Positions 2,382 through 56,313 are shown, counted from the first letter of the stretch. The stretch: DNA of 64,000 bases from an uncultured bacterium (GCA_963713735.1 CAVQND010000015.1:8095-72094), one strand, 5' to 3'. The notes: generated by a model from the sequence alone, not told the origin. Numbers and translations are program-made.

Positions 2382-4367
2382 ATGAATACACCTCCCATTC
2401 CGGTCCTTCCGGTCGCCCTTCTGCTCTGCTGCAGCCCACTGGCCTGCCTCGGCCAGGTTGATCCCAAGCAACTTGGGGGTGTCCTGGGCGAGGAACTCGT
2501 TCCCCCGAGCGTGTCCGAGCATCAGTTGCGCCATTACCTGGTGAATCTCGTGGCGCCCCCGCCTTCGCCCGCGACCGCCGGCCAGTGGAGCCAGGAGGCC
2601 AAACAACTGCGCGAGCACTGGCTCAACGACGTGGTTTATCATGGCTGGCCGCGCGACGTCATCGAGGCCCCGCCCCGATTCGAGGAGACCGGAGTCATCG
2701 AGACCGGCAAAGGATACCGGGTCCGCAAGCTGCGCTACGAGATCGTGCCGGGGTTCTACTCGGCGGCGCTGCTTTACGAGCCGGAGGGCGCCCGGCGTGG
2801 CTCACCGGCCATTTTGAACGTCAATGGGCACGTGGGCGCGCCGGGCAAGACTGTCGAGTACAAGCAGAGGCGGTGCATCCAGTTTGCCAAACAGGGCATC
2901 CTGGCCCTGAACCTGGAATGGCTCAGCTTTGGCGAGCTCTCCCAAAGTGAGAACCAGCACTGGTACGGCGCGCACCTCGACCTGGTGGGGGCGCACGAAC
3001 TGGGCTTGTTCTACCTGGCCATGCGCCGGGGACTCGACTACCTCTGCCATCATCCCCTGGTGGACCGCGAGCGGATCGGGATGACCGGCCTGTCGGGCGG
3101 TGGCTGGCAGACGATCATGCTCACCGCCCTGGATACGCGGATCAAAGTCACGGCGCCCGTGGCCGGCTTCTCCTCGATTGCTTCGCGGGTCGAGGCCAAG
3201 CGCTATGGCGACTTGGGCGACATCGAGCAAGCCCCGACCGACTTCTTCGTCGGAAGCGACTACACGCACTTGGTGGGCCTGTGCGCGCCCCGCCCCACGC
3301 TGCTGATCTATAATGCGGAGGATGATTGTTGTTTCCGGGCGCCGTTGGTCAAGCCGCTGGTCTTCGACGCGATGCGCCCGCTCTTCGCACTTTATGGGGC
3401 TGGGGAGGCCTTGCAGTGGCACGAAAACCTGGACCCGGGAACCCACAATTACCAGAAGGACAACCGGCTGGCAGCTTATCGCTTTTTTGCCGCCCACTTT
3501 CATCTGCCACCATTTGCGGAGGAAGGAAATCTGGATTCGGAACTCAGAAGTTATAACGAGCTCACCGTGGGGTTGCCAACGAACAATCTTACCATCCTGG
3601 GTCTGGCGCAAAAACTGGGCCGGGAAATAGCCCGCACCCCCATTCCCACAAACCAGGCCGAGCGCGCGCGCTGGGTTCTGGCAGAGCGGGTTCGGCTCGA
3701 ACAGGTCATCCGGCACCGATCGCCCGCGCTGGCCGAGCCTTGGCCGGTGGCCAGCACCAAGAACGGGGGCGTGGAGAGCATCTCCTACGTGTTCGACTTC
3801 GGAAACGGTCTTTCGGCCAACGGCGTGCTCATGCGCCTGATGGGCTGCCCGGAAACCGCGCCGGTGACGCTCATCCTGAATGATAAGGGCAAGAGGGAAA
3901 GCGCCGGCCCGGTCGCGGCCCGGGTCGTCAAGGGCGAACAGGTTCTGGCACTGGACTTGGCTTTCTACGGCGACGCCTGGCGGGGGGTGCCCGTGCCCGA
4001 TTACGCGCAGATCATTCACGGGTTGGGCGAGCGCCCGCTGGGCATCATGGTGGGACAATTACTGGAGATCAGCCGGTGGCTGCGCGACCGGGCCGGTGGA
4101 GCCCGCGTGGGCGTGGAAAGCGCCGGTTTGCGCCACCAGGTAGTGGTTCTCTCGACCGCCGCCCTCGAGCCCGACCTGTTCTCTGAGATTACCATCCGCG
4201 ACGGAGTGAAGAGCCTGTCCTGCCTTTTGGAAAGGCCCGTCCAGTTTTCCCAGGCCCCGGAGTTGTTCTGCCTCGATTTCTTCAAGGACTTTGACCTGGA
4301 CCGGCTGCAAGCGATGATTCGGGGCGTGCGGGTCGAATTCAAGAGCCTGGGCGAGCCGGCCAAATGA
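2382..4367 (+). CDS. Secreted alpha/beta-hydrolase (acetyl-xylan-esterase / dienelactone-hydrolase-like)
   Basis: Signal-like N-terminus MNTPPIPVLPVALLLCCSPLACLG at the internal ATG 2382. Nucleophile elbow GLSGGG (G-x-S-x-G). Intact 661-aa frame. Confidence 0.7.
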   Translation: MNTPPIPVLPVALLLCCSPLACLGQVDPKQLGGVLGEELVPPSVSEHQLRHYLVNLVAPPPSPATAGQWSQEAKQLREHWLNDVVYHGWPRDVIEAPPRFEETGVIETGKGYRVRKLRYEIVPGFYSAALLYEPEGARRGSPAILNVNGHVGAPGKTVEYKQRRCIQFAKQGILALNLEWLSFGELSQSENQHWYGAHLDLVGAHELGLFYLAMRRGLDYLCHHPLVDRERIGMTGLSGGGWQTIMLTALDTRIKVTAPVAGFSSIASRVEAKRYGDLGDIEQAPTDFFVGSDYTHLVGLCAPRPTLLIYNAEDDCCFRAPLVKPLVFDAMRPLFALYGAGEALQWHENLDPGTHNYQKDNRLAAYRFFAAHFHLPPFAEEGNLDSELRSYNELTVGLPTNNLTILGLAQKLGREIARTPIPTNQAERARWVLAERVRLEQVIRHRSPALAEPWPVASTKNGGVESISYVFDFGNGLSANGVLMRLMGCPETAPVTLILNDKGKRESAGPVAARVVKGEQVLALDLAFYGDAWRGVPVPDYAQIIHGLGERPLGIMVGQLLEISRWLRDRAGGARVGVESAGLRHQVVVLSTAALEPDLFSEITIRDGVKSLSCLLERPVQFSQAPELFCLDFFKDFDLDRLQAMIRGVRVEFKSLGEPAK

Positions 4368-28959: not shown

Positions 28960-29142
28960 GTCACCGCCTCCGTCCTGCGCCGAAACCGACAAGAAACTGG
29001 CAAAATGTGCCCCTTGACGGTCCGGTCCTCCCCTGGTATCAACCGGCCATAATGAGTGAGAGCGAAAGCCAATTCTCCCTCACCCGCGCAGCGTCAAAAC
29101 CGGGGCGCGGCAAAAGACCAAATTCTTATCGGTCGAGAGTTT

Positions 29143-29841
29143 ATGATAAGCGCGCGTGTCATCACGCTTGATTGTTACGGCACGCTGATTGATACGAGGC
29201 CGATTACTGAAATGATCGAGGGCATCGCCGAGGCGCACGGGGTTGATCGGGAGGTTTTTGTTTCCGCGTTTGATGCGGAAGAGGTGCGCCAAATGCAGGC
29301 TGCCGAGTTTAGGCCGCCGGATAAGATTGTAGGTGCTTGCTTCAAGCATTGCGGGGAGACATTTGGAGTCGGATCGTTAGAGCAATACGAGCAGCCGGTT
29401 CTGGAACACTACCGGCAATTGAAGCCGTTTCCAGAGGTGATTGACGTACTGCATCGATTGGGTTCTCAGTTCGACCTCTACATCATGTCCAACTCGCAGT
29501 CGGACGTTATTGATTCGAACGTCCGGGCGCTCAAAACCCGGTTTAAGGGCGTTTTTATCGCCGGAGAGCTTCGGTGCTACAAACCCGACCTCCGCTTTTT
29601 CCGTGCGGTCGCCGGGCGGCTTGAACTCGGGAAGCCTCAGGTCTTTCATGTTCACATCGCGGCAGGATTTTGGTGGGACATCATACCGGCATCCCAACTC
29701 GGTTGGAATCGAATCTGGGTGAATAGGCGGAAGGGCGCCGGTGAGAGCAAATACCGGCCATACTTTGAGACTTCCGATTTGGCTGGGTGTGTCGAACGGG
29801 TCGAGGAGTTGGAGAAACGAATATGGCCTCAAGACCTATAG
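29143..29841 (+). CDS. HAD-superfamily hydrolase, type II haloacid-dehalogenase-like
   Basis: Motif I LDCYGTLID (D-x-Y-G-T), MSNS motif II and a K...D region. Visibly lower GC than neighbours. Confidence 0.7.
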   Translation: MISARVITLDCYGTLIDTRPITEMIEGIAEAHGVDREVFVSAFDAEEVRQMQAAEFRPPDKIVGACFKHCGETFGVGSLEQYEQPVLEHYRQLKPFPEVIDVLHRLGSQFDLYIMSNSQSDVIDSNVRALKTRFKGVFIAGELRCYKPDLRFFRAVAGRLELGKPQVFHVHIAAGFWWDIIPASQLGWNRIWVNRRKGAGESKYRPYFETSDLAGCVERVEELEKRIWPQDL

Positions 29842-37739: not shown

Positions 37740-38260
37740 AGCGCGCGCTCACCCGCGAAGCGGCAAAACCGGCGCGGCGGCAAAAAAGCAATTTCTTATG
37801 TGCAGCCTTCTGTCCTTTGACATGCTTGCAGGTGCAAGAGTATCAGATTTGGTGCAAGCGGAATTTCATAAAAAGTTGTTGGAGGACACCGCGACGGCCA
37901 CCGTTTGTGAACGGTTTATGCGCATTTAGCGGGGACGCAACCGTTGGTCAAAGATCGGACCCGAGACGGGGGAAGGCCGATGGCAAACTGACCCCGCCCG
38001 GTCTGCGGACTAGTGCTACGAGACCCCTGGAGAGTTCTCCGCCGGAACCCCTGAGAGCAGCTCCATGGTCTAAGTATCTTTGAGCAGCACCGCCACGCCA
38101 GCCAGGCGTGAGCGGGGAAAGGGGAGGCCAGTTGGTAATCTTGCACAAACAGCCGGTATCCCTTACCGCTGTGGTCCCACTTGAACCACTCCGGCCTACC
38201 CCCCGCCCCGGATCCTCCTTCAACCGCGCCGGCGACGCACCCTGGATTGAAGCCTCGCCC

Positions 38261-39733
38261 TCAGGCCTTGGCGCTACAGGAGTGTTGCGGTAAGGGCAAG
38301 GAAATTGAGTGGCTTTCTTGAACCATCGCGCGCCACTTTCCCAAGGCAGTATAGGGCGCAAAGACCTGGGCTAATGGGGCCTTGGACTGCCACTTGATTA
38401 GGAGTTTGGGCCAGAGTTCCAGGTAATAAGCCGCCCGCGCTGGGGCGGGGGACTCGGGCGCGTACAGGTCGGGCGGCAGGTAAAGGGTTTGCCGCTGCAT
38501 CAAGGATTTGCCCAGACCCAAGAGGTCTTTGGCCACCACGAAATCGGCATGGCTCTTGCGGGCCTGGACGTCTCGGTAACGTTGCTGGAGTTCAGGTGGG
38601 CCCATTTGCCCCATTTTATTGGCGGCTTGGACCAGGTAATTTTTGAGGTGATGATTACAGCGCTGCCAGACTCCCAAGACGACCGGAGCCTGGTCGGGGC
38701 CACCACTCTGCCTGGTGGCGGGAACGATGCCCGCATAGGAACAGAGCAAATCCAAGTTGGGTAATTGGTCCGGCGGCCCCAGTTCACTGGCCATGCCGGC
38801 GGCCAAGGTGACACCGATGCCGGCGATGGAAGTCAGGACCGCACCCGGGGTCTTGGCGAGCAAGGGGGCAATTTGACGATCCAAGCCGGTGATGACTTGT
38901 TGGAGAGATTGGCTTTGGTCGGCCAGGACTTTAAGTAGTTGCTGCCAGGTGGCCACATATTGGGTGGAGGGCGGCAGGACTTCACGGGCCAAAGATTGGA
39001 GGGTGGCAGCCGCCGTGGGGGCGTCGGGCAGGCCCTGGCGCTGGAGGCCCTCGATGAGGTTGCCGGTACGGCGCTGGGCAATTTGTGGAGCGCTAAAACG
39101 ATCTTCCAGCAGCCACCAACAGGCCGGAGTGAAAGGCGGGATGCCGCTCTTTTTGGGGTCCAGGAATTGGGGAAAGAGCCGGTCGACATAATTATGGAGG
39201 CGATTGGTCAGCGCCGTGGCGGAGGTGACGAAGCAATGACGTTCCCGGCACAGGTCGCGCAAGTGGCGGTAATCGTCGGCGACGGGAGGATTGAGTTTGC
39301 CGCGTTGTTTGAGCAGGCATTGAGCAATTCCCAGCAGGTCCAGGGTGTCATTGGAGGCTTGGAAGTTTACGCGTTGCTTTTTGGCTTCCCAGGCGTTGAC
39401 ACGAGCGACGGCAAAACCTTTGGCTCGGAGGGCGGTGATAAAGTTCTCGGCCCAAGCCGGGACATCCTCCCCGCCGAAGAAAGCGTGGGTGGACTGGAGA
39501 TGATGATGACGGCAAGTGTCGTCCAGTTGGGCGAGCGGGCCGGTTAAGCCGCTGGGAGAGTTATCCACGCTAAAAGCTTTCTTGAGGATATCGCCCACGC
39601 CATTGCAGAAAAGGACGGTGTGCTTACGCTTGGCATAGTCAATGGGAGCGCAGAGAACCCTGCGCGGATCCCCGGCCCGCTCAAACAGGTTGCGCAATTC
39701 GGGTTGGGGTTTAGCATAGATGGACGCAGTCAT
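38261..39733 (-). CDS. IS110-family (DEDD RuvC-like + Tnp domain) transposase/recombinase
   Basis: PIDYAKRKH..., ...SNDTLDLLGIA..., ...TSIAGIGVTLAAGMASELG... and ...SYAGIVPATRQSG... motifs typical of IS110/IS116/IS902 enzymes. Start taken at MTASIYAK (39733). Confidence 0.85.
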   Translation of the reverse strand: MTASIYAKPQPELRNLFERAGDPRRVLCAPIDYAKRKHTVLFCNGVGDILKKAFSVDNSPSGLTGPLAQLDDTCRHHHLQSTHAFFGGEDVPAWAENFITALRAKGFAVARVNAWEAKKQRVNFQASNDTLDLLGIAQCLLKQRGKLNPPVADDYRHLRDLCRERHCFVTSATALTNRLHNYVDRLFPQFLDPKKSGIPPFTPACWWLLEDRFSAPQIAQRRTGNLIEGLQRQGLPDAPTAAATLQSLAREVLPPSTQYVATWQQLLKVLADQSQSLQQVITGLDRQIAPLLAKTPGAVLTSIAGIGVTLAAGMASELGPPDQLPNLDLLCSYAGIVPATRQSGGPDQAPVVLGVWQRCNHHLKNYLVQAANKMGQMGPPELQQRYRDVQARKSHADFVVAKDLLGLGKSLMQRQTLYLPPDLYAPESPAPARAAYYLELWPKLLIKWQSKAPLAQVFAPYTALGKWRAMVQESHSISLPLPQHSCSAKA

Positions 39734-39739
39734 ACAGCT

Positions 39740-39968
39740 TGGTTCAAGTTGAGGCAGCGCGGTTTCGGCGCGTTGCCGATTAATCTTAACGGACTTGGAC
39801 TGATTAGCTTCCGCCAGCTCGTGGGTTAACACCACTGGCTGGCGGTCTCATTTGGGGGAAAAACTCTCAGAACCGGCCGAGGCCTGTCCCCTCGTTGGGG
39901 AATGGGTTGGCGGGCGAGCTTCGCCCGGGGGCTCGCCCGCCAACCCATTCCCCAACGAGGGTGAAGGT
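39740..39968 (-). ncRNA. Structured 5' leader of the IS110 recombinase (candidate bridge-RNA-type guide RNA)
   Basis: On the recombinase strand: 31-bp hairpin; hairpin CCGCCAGC...GCUGGCGG with inner GUGG/CCAC; 5-bp stem UAAUC/GAUUA closing the loop AGUCCAAGUCCGUUAA (plus 39786-39801); hairpin GGCAACGCG-CCGAAAC-CGCGCUGCC. The function is inferred from published IS110 biology. Confidence 0.4.
39889..39961. repeat. Perfect 31-bp-stem hairpin with 11-nt loop
   Basis: 39889-39919 (ccctcgttggggaatgggttggcgggcgagc) is the exact reverse complement of 39931-39961. Confidence 0.95.
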
Positions 39969-40012
39969 ACTAGTCCTGCCTGGTCAATGGATGGTTGGGC
40001 CGAGTAGTGATA

Positions 40013-40156
40013 GCAGACCCCGGCCGGGGGAGACCCCGGATGGTGCAAGCTCTGCCGTAAACGGGCGGGCCTGTCGGTGGCGCAAGTCATCGCCGGGGAC
40101 GGGCCAGCCGCTCTAGCCAACATGCAGGCCGCAACATTACGAGAAGACTGCCGCTC
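40013..40156 (+). ncRNA. Conserved ~145-nt structured module, copy A (paralog of 55521-55665); class unknown
   Basis: Shares with copy B an identical 28-nt block (ctctgccgtaaacgggcgggcctgtcgg), plus caggccgcaac and gactgccgctc. Closing helix GCAGA/UCUGC. Hairpin CCGGGG-GAGA-CCCCGG. The strand is tentative. Confidence 0.5.
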
Positions 40157-40246
40157 CGTTAATTAAAGGAGTCATTAAAGGAGTCAACCCATAGTATGGC
40201 TCATTGTTGTGTTGACTCTTGAGGGGGCGAGTGCGAAAAGAGGACC

Positions 40247-40459
40247 ATGCCGCGCAAGCCGCGGGTTGAATATCCCGGTGTCGTGCAGATGGCGCCGGAA
40301 TACTGGAGACTCAGAACCGGACACTCTCCCTTTTCGTTTCCCGAGCTGTGTTCCCACTGGCGTCGGCAGGGGCTGCCGAAGCGCGGGACCCCGGTTTTCG
40401 TGCGGTCGCAAGATCTACCTGAGCTGCCTGGTGCAGGGCCAGGCGCTCCCACACCTTGA
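40247..40459 (+). pseudogene. Possible remnant of an IS200-like/REP-associated tyrosine transposase (RAYT-type) gene
   Basis: Only the N-terminal MPRKPRVEYPGVV resembles the MPRKPR.EYPGA.YHV start common in this family. The rest is unrelated, implying deletion. Confidence 0.3.
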
Positions 40460-54841: not shown

Positions 54842-54919
54842 CGGAGCGTAGCTCAGCCTGGCTAGAGCACTTGGTTTGGGACCAAGACGTTGCAGGTTCA
54901 AATCCTGTCGCTCCGACCA
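54842..54919 (+). tRNA. tRNA-Pro (anticodon UGG), CCA encoded
   Basis: Hand-folded cloverleaf. Acceptor CGGAGCG/CGCUCCG, D stem GCUC/GAGC, anticodon stem CUUGG/CCAAG with loop UUUGGGA, 5-nt variable loop, T stem GCAGG/CCUGU with loop UUCAAAU, discriminator A, then CCA. Confidence 0.9.
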
Positions 54920-55334: not shown

Positions 55335-55432
55335 CGCAAAAAGGGCTCGCCACGAAAACGGAGGCCGAGAAATGGTTTACCGTCTCTCCGCAGCAGCCCG
55401 GCAACGTGGTCCAGCTTGGAAGAACCGCCTGA

Positions 55433-56300
55433 GAGACTAGCAGCCTGTCGGACTTAGAAACCGATTTCGGTGGCTGGACCCCATCACCAGATCCCGCTGC
55501 TCACAAAAATCAAGAAAAAAGCAGACTCCAGCGAGGGGAGCCCCTGGCTGGGGCAATCTCTGCCGTAAACGGGCGGGCCTGTCGGCGGCCCAGAGCCGCG
55601 GACGGGGGCTGGTGAGCCGCTCCAGCCAACGTCCAGGCCGCAACGTCAACAACTGACTGCCGCTCAGAAAGCGCTTCCTTCTCTGAAACCACTGAGGAGG
55701 GCGTCTTGGAACAGCCGAACCGTGATAGGAACGGTGAAGGCTCTGATGACCGGGAGATGAGCGATCAAATGAACTCCGTCAGCCGACGGGGTAGAGGTCG
55801 CGGCATGGACGGAAGGTATGTCAAAGCAAAGAAGGGAAGGTGAGCCGAACGGCCCGCGAGGGCAAAGACCGCCCAGAGCAAGCCGAACAGGCCCAAGCTG
55901 CACGGAGTTCGCCAGACCGCCGCATCAGGCCGTAGTAGCGTTTGCAGGCGAGGGGACAAAAAACCGTACTGAGCCAAGGGCCCGTGGGCACAGCCGCGAT
56001 CCGATACATCTGGACTCTGAGCCAGACACGGAAAGGAACGCAGCCTCCGCGTCAAACGCCGCCGGGGACGGCTGCGGAAGGGCGCGGAGCGACAAGGCTG
56101 GCTGACGACCGTACCGGAAAACTCACCCTGCGGGATGAACAGAGGGGGTGGGGGAAACGTGGGCAGCACCCGATGGCCATTCGCAACGATGCTCGAAAGG
56201 GCAGAAACACACCAAGCCATTGGTCCAAGCCGTCCGCGCCTCCACTCCACTCGACCAGTCGTTGGTCAATAAAGAAACTGCCGCCCCGCGGCGATTTCTG
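55433..56300 (+). ncRNA. Candidate large structured RNA / giant structured leader (class unknown)
   Basis: No credible ORF in any frame across ~980 bp. Purine-rich plus strand with GNRA-capped helices (55852-55863 GCGA loop, 56191-56202 GAAA loop), a tandem-G.A symmetric helix at 55713-55742, pseudoknot-compatible segments at 56039-56088 and an 11-bp hairpin at 56273-56299. Confidence 0.45.
55521..55665 (+). ncRNA. Conserved ~145-nt structured module, copy B (paralog of 40013-40156)
   Basis: Same order of conserved blocks as copy A. Helices keep their position but change sequence: GCGGC-CCAGA-GCCGC here vs GGCG-CAAGUCAU-CGCC in A. The outer helix CUCCAGC/GCUGGGG needs a U.G pair, which is valid only on the plus strand. 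Confidence 0.5.
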
Positions 56301-56313
56301 GTAAGCTCCCGCC

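Follow-up and report, generated by a model that had tools for sequence, protein, structure and literature searches.

A repeated, covarying RNA module is very probably part of domain I of decayed group II introns that lack a reading frame

The closest described counterparts of the RNA discussed here are bacterial group II introns of the IIA/IIB type, ORF-less group II introns that are mobilised in trans, and the class IIC elements named HYER. Examples of ORF-less introns mobilised in trans are found in cyanobacteria. ORF-less derivatives of bacterial and archaeal introns that encode a reverse transcriptase (RT), likewise mobilised in trans, have been described (Dai & Zimmerly, RNA 2003, via PMC11754743), and they have a known RT-encoding parent in the same genome. 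HYER elements, according to PMC11754743, are ORF-less class IIC introns of about 0.4-0.6 kb, with a short domain I and without EBS2, that recognise targets of roughly 7 nt, hydrolyse DNA and multiply without an intron-encoded protein (IEP) (Liu et al., Science 2024).

The DNA analysed here, called the window below, is a stretch of 64,000 nt from an uncultured bacterium in which a module of about 145 nt is present twice. This duplication, reported by the first-pass annotation, is far beyond chance: in a blastn comparison of the 64-kb window with itself, 40012-40156 and 55520-55665 are 78.8% identical over 146 nt (E 2e-29), and the identical blocks listed in that annotation, one of 28 nt together with caggccgcaac and gactgccgctc, were all found. 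No third copy was found by blastn within the window, and a profile of the full-length element introduced below matches the window only at 39963-40163 (profile positions 28-229) and at 55519-56255 (positions 76-815). Both modules (copy A, 40013-40156, and copy B, 55520-55665, each on the plus strand) very probably represent the best-conserved domain I stretch of group II introns of about 815 nt without a reading frame, and the two intron copies that contain them are, as judged from their predicted architecture, dead relics of mobile ribozymes of an already known type. The window thereby loses a candidate for a novel structured RNA. The intron relics would account for the duplicated module, for the location of an IS110-family element inside the intron and, with 737 nt, for about three quarters of the ORF-free region of 979 nt at 55335-56313.

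Module copy A is made up of a closing helix (GCAGA/UCUGC), an apical hairpin with a GAGA loop, the junction CGUAAAC, a branched hairpin and the stretch CAGGCCGCAAC...GACUGCCGC. The helices were examined in an alignment of 103 distinct homologous sequences, taken from among the matches listed, with helix partners slid by 1-3 columns and 500 shuffles as controls. Double-sided changes occur in all six pairs of the hairpin that follows GUCGG and in 7 of the 11 pairs of the apical GNRA hairpin, and these two of the helices proposed in the first-pass annotation are therefore upheld by the 103 sequences; the third, the closing helix, is 97.6% paired with no double changes and neither supports nor opposes covariation. 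Over the whole module structure 96.6% of the cells are paired, as against 32-50% with slid partners, and the 22 compensatory pairs compare with 11.3 ± 1.7 after shuffling, a number that none of the 500 shuffles attains. Most of the structure is also predicted independently by RNAalifold, and single-sequence folding is uninformative (z = 0.26 for copy A and -3.15 for copy B). The compensatory changes are thus genuine, and with them the proposal that RNA secondary structure is under selection. That copies A and B differ by such changes can be explained by their descent from two diverged subfamilies, in each of which the helices were kept: copy A is nearest to the homologue L006 (89.9% identical) and copy B to L003 (91.5%), and the identity between L003 and L006 is 85%.

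Real, covarying helices, together with the fact that neither window copy reaches any Rfam gathering score, would also suit a free-standing small RNA with structure, or a cis-regulatory element, that belongs to a new family and is linked to IS110 or RAYT genes, as the first-pass annotation had implied. This explanation is nevertheless highly improbable, because the module is not self-contained: in each of at least 100 homologues it occupies a fixed position (about 78-222) within an element of about 815 nt, with homology on both sides. Copy A, moreover, matches the whole of a group II model, and homologues score above the gathering score of that model. The supposed neighbours fare no better, since no other fetched copy adjoins this IS110 element, and the start of the RAYT-like ORF beside copy A recurs, as a 34-nt match, only near the intron of L097, about 47 nt upstream of it and on the opposite strand. 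Under the group II reading, the module is probably subdomain IC (the C1 hairpin, the junction and the branched C2) plus the strand that leads to EBS2 and the start of subdomain ID. This naming is based on the alignment of the junction CGUAAAC with the 'GAcAA' of the Rfam consensus and on the conserved DIC1/DIC2 junction, 'GACAANGUA', described in PMC11754743.

Homologues were collected with a pattern derived from the shared blocks, which was searched in species-representative genomes and then in metagenome contigs. Six of the eight pattern matches in the genomes are true homologues; the other two, L001 and L002, were dropped as chance matches. The named hosts are Verrucomicrobiota MAGs (labelled Verrucomicrobia/Pedosphaerales or Limisphaerales); five of the six homologues come either from MAGs with these labels or from one other MAG. 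As the nearest relatives of the window's intron copies lie in Verrucomicrobiota MAGs, the window itself may belong to this phylum. The module pattern is carried by at least 120 metagenome contigs, and members of the family are numerous in metagenomes from peat, soil and fresh water. A search with a family profile built from four complete copies yielded, among the matches listed, 57 full-length copies, 52 of them unique, with lengths of 776-822 nt and a mode of 814 nt; no reading frame was found in any of the 57. The ends of the full copies are sharp (GTGCAGCC...CACTCGAC) and their flanks are varied; the full-length copy of L003, for example, occupies 2509-3324 on the minus strand. They start with GUGCAG and finish with CACUCGAC, and the 5′ GUGCA(G), which all of them share, agrees with the GUGYG consensus at four of five positions. 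Homology reaches far past the module at locus B, where 744 nt (55520-56259) align with L003 at 91.5% identity, and locus A is 84-90% identical to L003-L008 over about 195 nt (39965-40162). The MAG JAOSKK01 contains three copies, CAVVMW01 two and the window at least two, and L007 and L008, which come from one MAG and have differing flanks, are 98.8% identical, a near-identity that points to recent mobility. A blastn search of the full intron against a plasmid collection gave no match, and a literature search on ORF-less group II introns in Verrucomicrobia gave no description of this family.

Comparison with Rfam, to which the first-pass annotation had pointed, separates the window copies from their homologues. 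With RF02003 (group-II-D1D4-4; gathering score 49), the six homologues from genomes reach 49.9-60.5 bits, a domain I match that likens them, as does the 5′ GUG, to bacterial introns of the IIA/IIB type, whereas the window copies stay below the gathering score: copy A (39961-40139) matches the full model with 34 bits (E 6e-6), and copy B gave 11 bits in a narrow scan and no match in a permissive 1-kb scan of its locus. The low scores can be explained by the fact that both copies are truncated or interrupted, and their assignment to group II consequently comes from homology to full-length copies. In the whole window, nothing but one tRNA is found by Rfam at the gathering score. RF00029 (Intron_gpII, domains V-VI) matches neither the window nor the six loci at its gathering score, nor the full L003 element even at E ≤ 10, and this failure can be attributed to the purines that stand opposite the catalytic triad of domain V.

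The pairings of the intron with its upstream exon are of the kind known from IIA/IIB-type introns and involve both EBS1 and EBS2. The EBS1 loop (consensus GAUAGGAA) lies just 5′ of the strand that closes domain I and pairs with the last six bases of the exon, on average in 5.44 of 6 positions, against 4.47 ± 0.08 for shuffled exons (maximum 4.81 in 1000 shuffles). EBS1 and IBS1 switch together among subfamilies (ATAGGA/TCCTAT, CAGAAG/CTTCTG, TTAGGA/TCCTAA, ACAGAA/TTCTGT and GCATC/GGATGC). EBS2 (consensus UUGCUU), in the loop that immediately follows the module, pairs with exon bases further upstream, with a mean of 4.77 pairs against 3.94 ± 0.11, a value that 1000 shuffles never reach. A further likeness to IIA/IIB-type introns is a domain III-like internal loop (GUAGUA/AAG), which lies in a block, GGCC-GUAGUA...AAG-GGCC, that is invariant in the alignment; at the homologous place in L003 the model RF01998 matches weakly (14.6 bits, E 9.2).

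The domain V-like hairpin (positions 659-695 of the family consensus; about 2640-2680 on the minus strand of L003) has, as in IIA/IIB-type introns, two helices, a bulge of 2 nt (CC) in the 3′ strand and an A-rich loop (GAAAA), and its stems are 95-97% paired with covariation. Unlike in those introns, purines are conserved opposite the triad, and the triad itself, read in the canonical register, is AAC in about half of the copies (29 of 52, with AGC in the other 23). Opposite it stands G-R-A in place of the usual G-U-U, and A.A (52/52) and R.R (50/52) thus take the place of the usual A-U and G.U at the base of the domain. The second opposition is G.A, A.G or A.A in 46 of 52 copies, and beneath the oppositions C.U is conserved, as are two Watson-Crick pairs. 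G.A and A.G alternate among copies, as if one specific non-Watson-Crick pair were kept. Domain VI is unusually long in comparison with IIA/IIB-type introns (about 115 nt). Compensatory changes are seen in its 13-bp helix, which is 98.2% paired. As in those introns, an A is bulged (in 51 of 52 copies) at a distance of 7 nt from a 3′ end in AC, and CUCGAC comes after it.

From these features we conclude with high confidence that the family of about 815 nt is an ORF-less group II intron of the EBS1 + EBS2 type with an atypical domain V, and we predict that its intact members are ribozymes. The first-pass annotation had allowed that the module might prove to be the end of a known mobile element whose protein-binding sites account for the conservation; the element does belong to a known mobile kind, but protein-binding sites are not the cause, since the RNA structure explains the conservation. 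The presence of EBS2 and the length of about 815 nt set the predicted intron apart from class IIC, and it lies outside the HYER group, because HYER are class IIC and much shorter. In that comparison, the two resemble each other in being ORF-less and multi-copy within genomes and in apparently spreading without an encoded protein; our family differs in its length and in its use of EBS1 + EBS2 with about 12 nt of pairing. Its departures from IIA/IIB-type introns are, besides those of domains V and VI, the lack of an IEP in any copy, the 5′ end GUGCA and the nature of the main target, which is a multi-copy intergenic repeat and not a gene.

This repeat, the main landing site of the family, is conserved and about 50-155 nt long, with the core UCACCCGCGCAGCG-YCAAGUAC-..GCGGGCGCGC-CAAAAASCAAAUUCCUAU. 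No convincing structure was obtained for it with RNAalifold. It is found both occupied and empty, in some cases twice on one contig. Copies of the repeat lie at 429-582 in L027 and at about 1516-1672 in L105, 9111-9190 in L015 and 1523-1602 in L080, and the same four loci have empty sites that read ...TTCCTAT|CAGT.... Another empty site is present in the window at 29129/29130, where a repeat (28976-29129, plus strand) ends in ...CAAATTCTTAT|CGGTCG and represents the target without an intron; an ORF starts (ATG at 29143) 13 nt beyond the end of this repeat. With empty sites available for comparison, and with near-identical copies in different flanks, insertion is seen to be precise, as it is in IIA/IIB-type introns.

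In a model of how the family may move, a full copy would be transcribed together with host RNA and would fold into a six-domain ribozyme. The target would then be recognised through pairing of EBS1 and EBS2 with the last 14 nt or so of the upstream exon, and movement would proceed through reverse splicing, after which a putative RT supplied in trans would reverse-transcribe the intron. No RT was found inside any intron copy, and a crude motif screen of the 529 kb of fetched DNA and the window, which covers short contigs, found none. The family is like the ORF-less introns mobilised in trans in having no ORF, several copies per genome and an EBS that is retargeted among subfamilies; unlike them, for which an RT-encoding parent is present in the same genome, no such parent was seen on the short contigs covered here.

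The same lack of any ORF in all 57 full copies listed and of an RT-like ORF in the 529 kb would be expected if the family were derived from group II introns and no longer spliced, having become a domesticated or selfish RNA, for example one that cuts DNA or integrates itself without protein and spreads without an IEP. A base of domain V that is non-canonical in a conserved manner, the lack of a match to RF00029 and the multi-copy, recently mobile character of the family are in keeping with this idea, and HYER, which as ORF-less class IIC introns multiply without an IEP and hydrolyse DNA according to PMC11754743, would be a precedent. The family, however, is not class IIC, having EBS2 and about 815 nt; it has kept the hallmarks of splicing, namely the 5′ GUG, EBS1 and EBS2, and the bulged A of domain VI at -7; and a trans-acting RT may lie elsewhere in the genomes, of which the contigs seen were short. 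We therefore regard loss of splicing as improbable. Somewhat less so, though still a doubtful proposition, is the broader one that these introns are an undescribed, non-IIC, protein-less group II lineage with purine-purine oppositions at the domain V triad, which would still be multiplying in Verrucomicrobiota, possibly without an IEP, by targeting of about 12 nt and homing into the repeat of about 50-155 nt. The interest of the family lies in its abundance, its lack of a protein gene, its signs of recent movement and its atypical domain V. If it moves without an RT of its own or with an altered catalytic core, it would bear on the protein-free reach of group II ribozymes, and, if true, this would also be relevant to compact RNA-only tools for DNA targeting.

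Copy A of the predicted intron extends overall over 37800-40163 and is split. Its 5′ exon (37748-37799, plus strand) is a copy of the homing-site repeat that ends in ...GCAAAAAAGCAATTTCTTAT| and can be aligned with the other flanks, and the exon sequence before 37800 is the usual ...GCAATTTCTTAT. This repeat copy comes after the stop of a beta-lactamase-family ORF. The first 39 nt of the intron (37800-37838, plus strand; GTGCAGCC...GGTGCAAG) contain the 5′ splice site and lead into domain I, and 37748-37838 is 84.8% identical to the 5′ flank and intron start of L003. The copy is interrupted after 37838 and continues at 39974 (TCCTGCC...) with a second segment (39974-40163, plus strand), which completes the 5′ hairpins of domain I and includes the module; nhmmer aligns 39963-40163 with profile positions 28-229 (E 8e-58).

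The interruption is an IS110-family element of about 2135 bp (37839-39973, minus strand), which is inserted at GGTGCAAG^TCCTGCC with a 2-nt (AG) ambiguity at the junction. That it was inserted into the intron follows from the fact that intron homology stops at 37838 and restarts at 39974. When 37800-37838 is joined to 39974 and the sequence onward, the product matches the family consensus across the junction, and this joined sequence therefore gives the state of locus A before the insertion. Locus B had been put forward for that role, but it is 5′-truncated at 55519 and preceded by unrelated DNA; the similarity of the two loci around an upstream gactag motif proved spurious, for the 'ctag' of A is the IS end and the sequence upstream of B has no homologue in the fetched loci. 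The element carries a transposase ORF (38261-39835, minus strand) with the Pfam domains DEDD_Tnp_IS110 (4.7e-16) and Transposase_20 (9.8e-11); an exact-protein look-up of the transposase with two alternative starts returned no record, and neither did one of the LytB-domain ORF. The element looks complete, and its target corresponds to a conserved loop, GGUGCAAG^UCC, of the first hairpin of the intron. At the IS end the sequence is GGTGAAGGTACTAG, similar to the target GGTGCAAG, and AG is common to both junctions. No second copy of the element was found that would confirm its ends.

The IS end at 39973 lies 39 nt before the module, a proximity that the first-pass annotation had recognised, and the non-coding end of the element upstream of the transposase, which faces the module, contains a near-perfect palindrome of about 92 nt (39870-39961, a blastn self-match). 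This arrangement might bring to mind a part of the IS110 element itself, for example a bridge (guide) RNA or a recombinase-binding end. Such an origin is, however, exceedingly unlikely: the module lies outside 37839-39973 and on the strand opposite to the transposase, intron sequence is also present on the far side of the IS (37800-37838), and copy B and at least 100 homologues have no IS110 nearby.

On its other side, copy A of the intron breaks off near 40163, at the position of EBS2 (about intron position 229), and the remainder, domains II-VI, is found nowhere in the window. Split by the IS110-family element and deprived of everything from EBS2 through domain VI, copy A is predicted to be incapable of working. 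At the break (40163-40246), AAAGGAGTCA occurs twice as a short direct repeat; beyond it, outside the intron, follows a short ORF (MPRKPRVEYPG..., 40247-40459, plus strand). This ORF had been called a RAYT-like remnant, a description that finds no backing in Pfam, which gives no match. Any likeness that it bears to the N-termini of Y1 transposases is our presumption.

Copy B (55519-56255, plus strand) corresponds to profile positions 76-815 (nhmmer E 7e-188) and runs to the 3′ end of the intron, ...CCACTCGAC, after which follows CAGT. Its homology begins abruptly at 55519, at intron position 76, and about 75 nt are therefore absent from the copy, among them the 5′ splice site and the two initial hairpins of domain I. 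The 184 nt between 55519 and the stop of a HicB-domain ORF (55334) have no match in the fetched loci. A diverged 5′ end upstream of B, considered on account of a GTGGTCC... resemblance, was rejected, since the profile starts at 76 and the upstream 185 nt or so are unmatched. Within the copy, the EBS2 region (55671-55678, plus strand; GCGCUUCC) is homologous to the family EBS2, and the EBS1 loop (55724-55731, plus strand; GAUAGGAA) is complementary to the exon ends UUCCUAU and UUCUUAU. A domain III-like stretch (55928-55982, plus strand; GGCC-GUAGUA-GCG...GAGCC-AAG-GGCC) was assigned by eye. Domain V (56108-56138, plus strand; equivalent to consensus positions 659-695) is decayed: compared with L003, it has lost 2 nt and carries three substitutions. 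Domain VI (56142-56255, plus strand) reads GAG-GGGGUGGGGG...CCUCCACUCC, with the bulged A, CUC and a 3′ end in GAC. With its 5′ splice site and first 75 nt or so gone and domain V damaged, copy B would likewise be unable to work. Further upstream, a tRNA (54842-54916; Rfam 64.6 bits) directly precedes the HicB-domain ORF (Pfam 1e-11), which extends to 55334; the listed start of this ORF overlaps the tRNA, and its true start is therefore likely to be further downstream.

Other copies of the family have also received insertions. The L004 copy, from the MAG JAOSKK01, is interrupted at about intron position 223-246 by an element of about 1.5 kb (about 2446-3905, minus strand), whose frameshifted ORFs resemble an ISL3-family transposase when the N-terminal sequence is compared by eye; an interpretation of this insert as an IEP was rejected on account of its frameshifted, ISL3-like transposase. 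In L065 (about 191-1150), L025 (about 480-1465) and L053, intron copies abut or are nested, a full copy being followed, for example, by the next GTGCAGCC... start, and this arrangement suggests tandem or intron-into-intron insertion.
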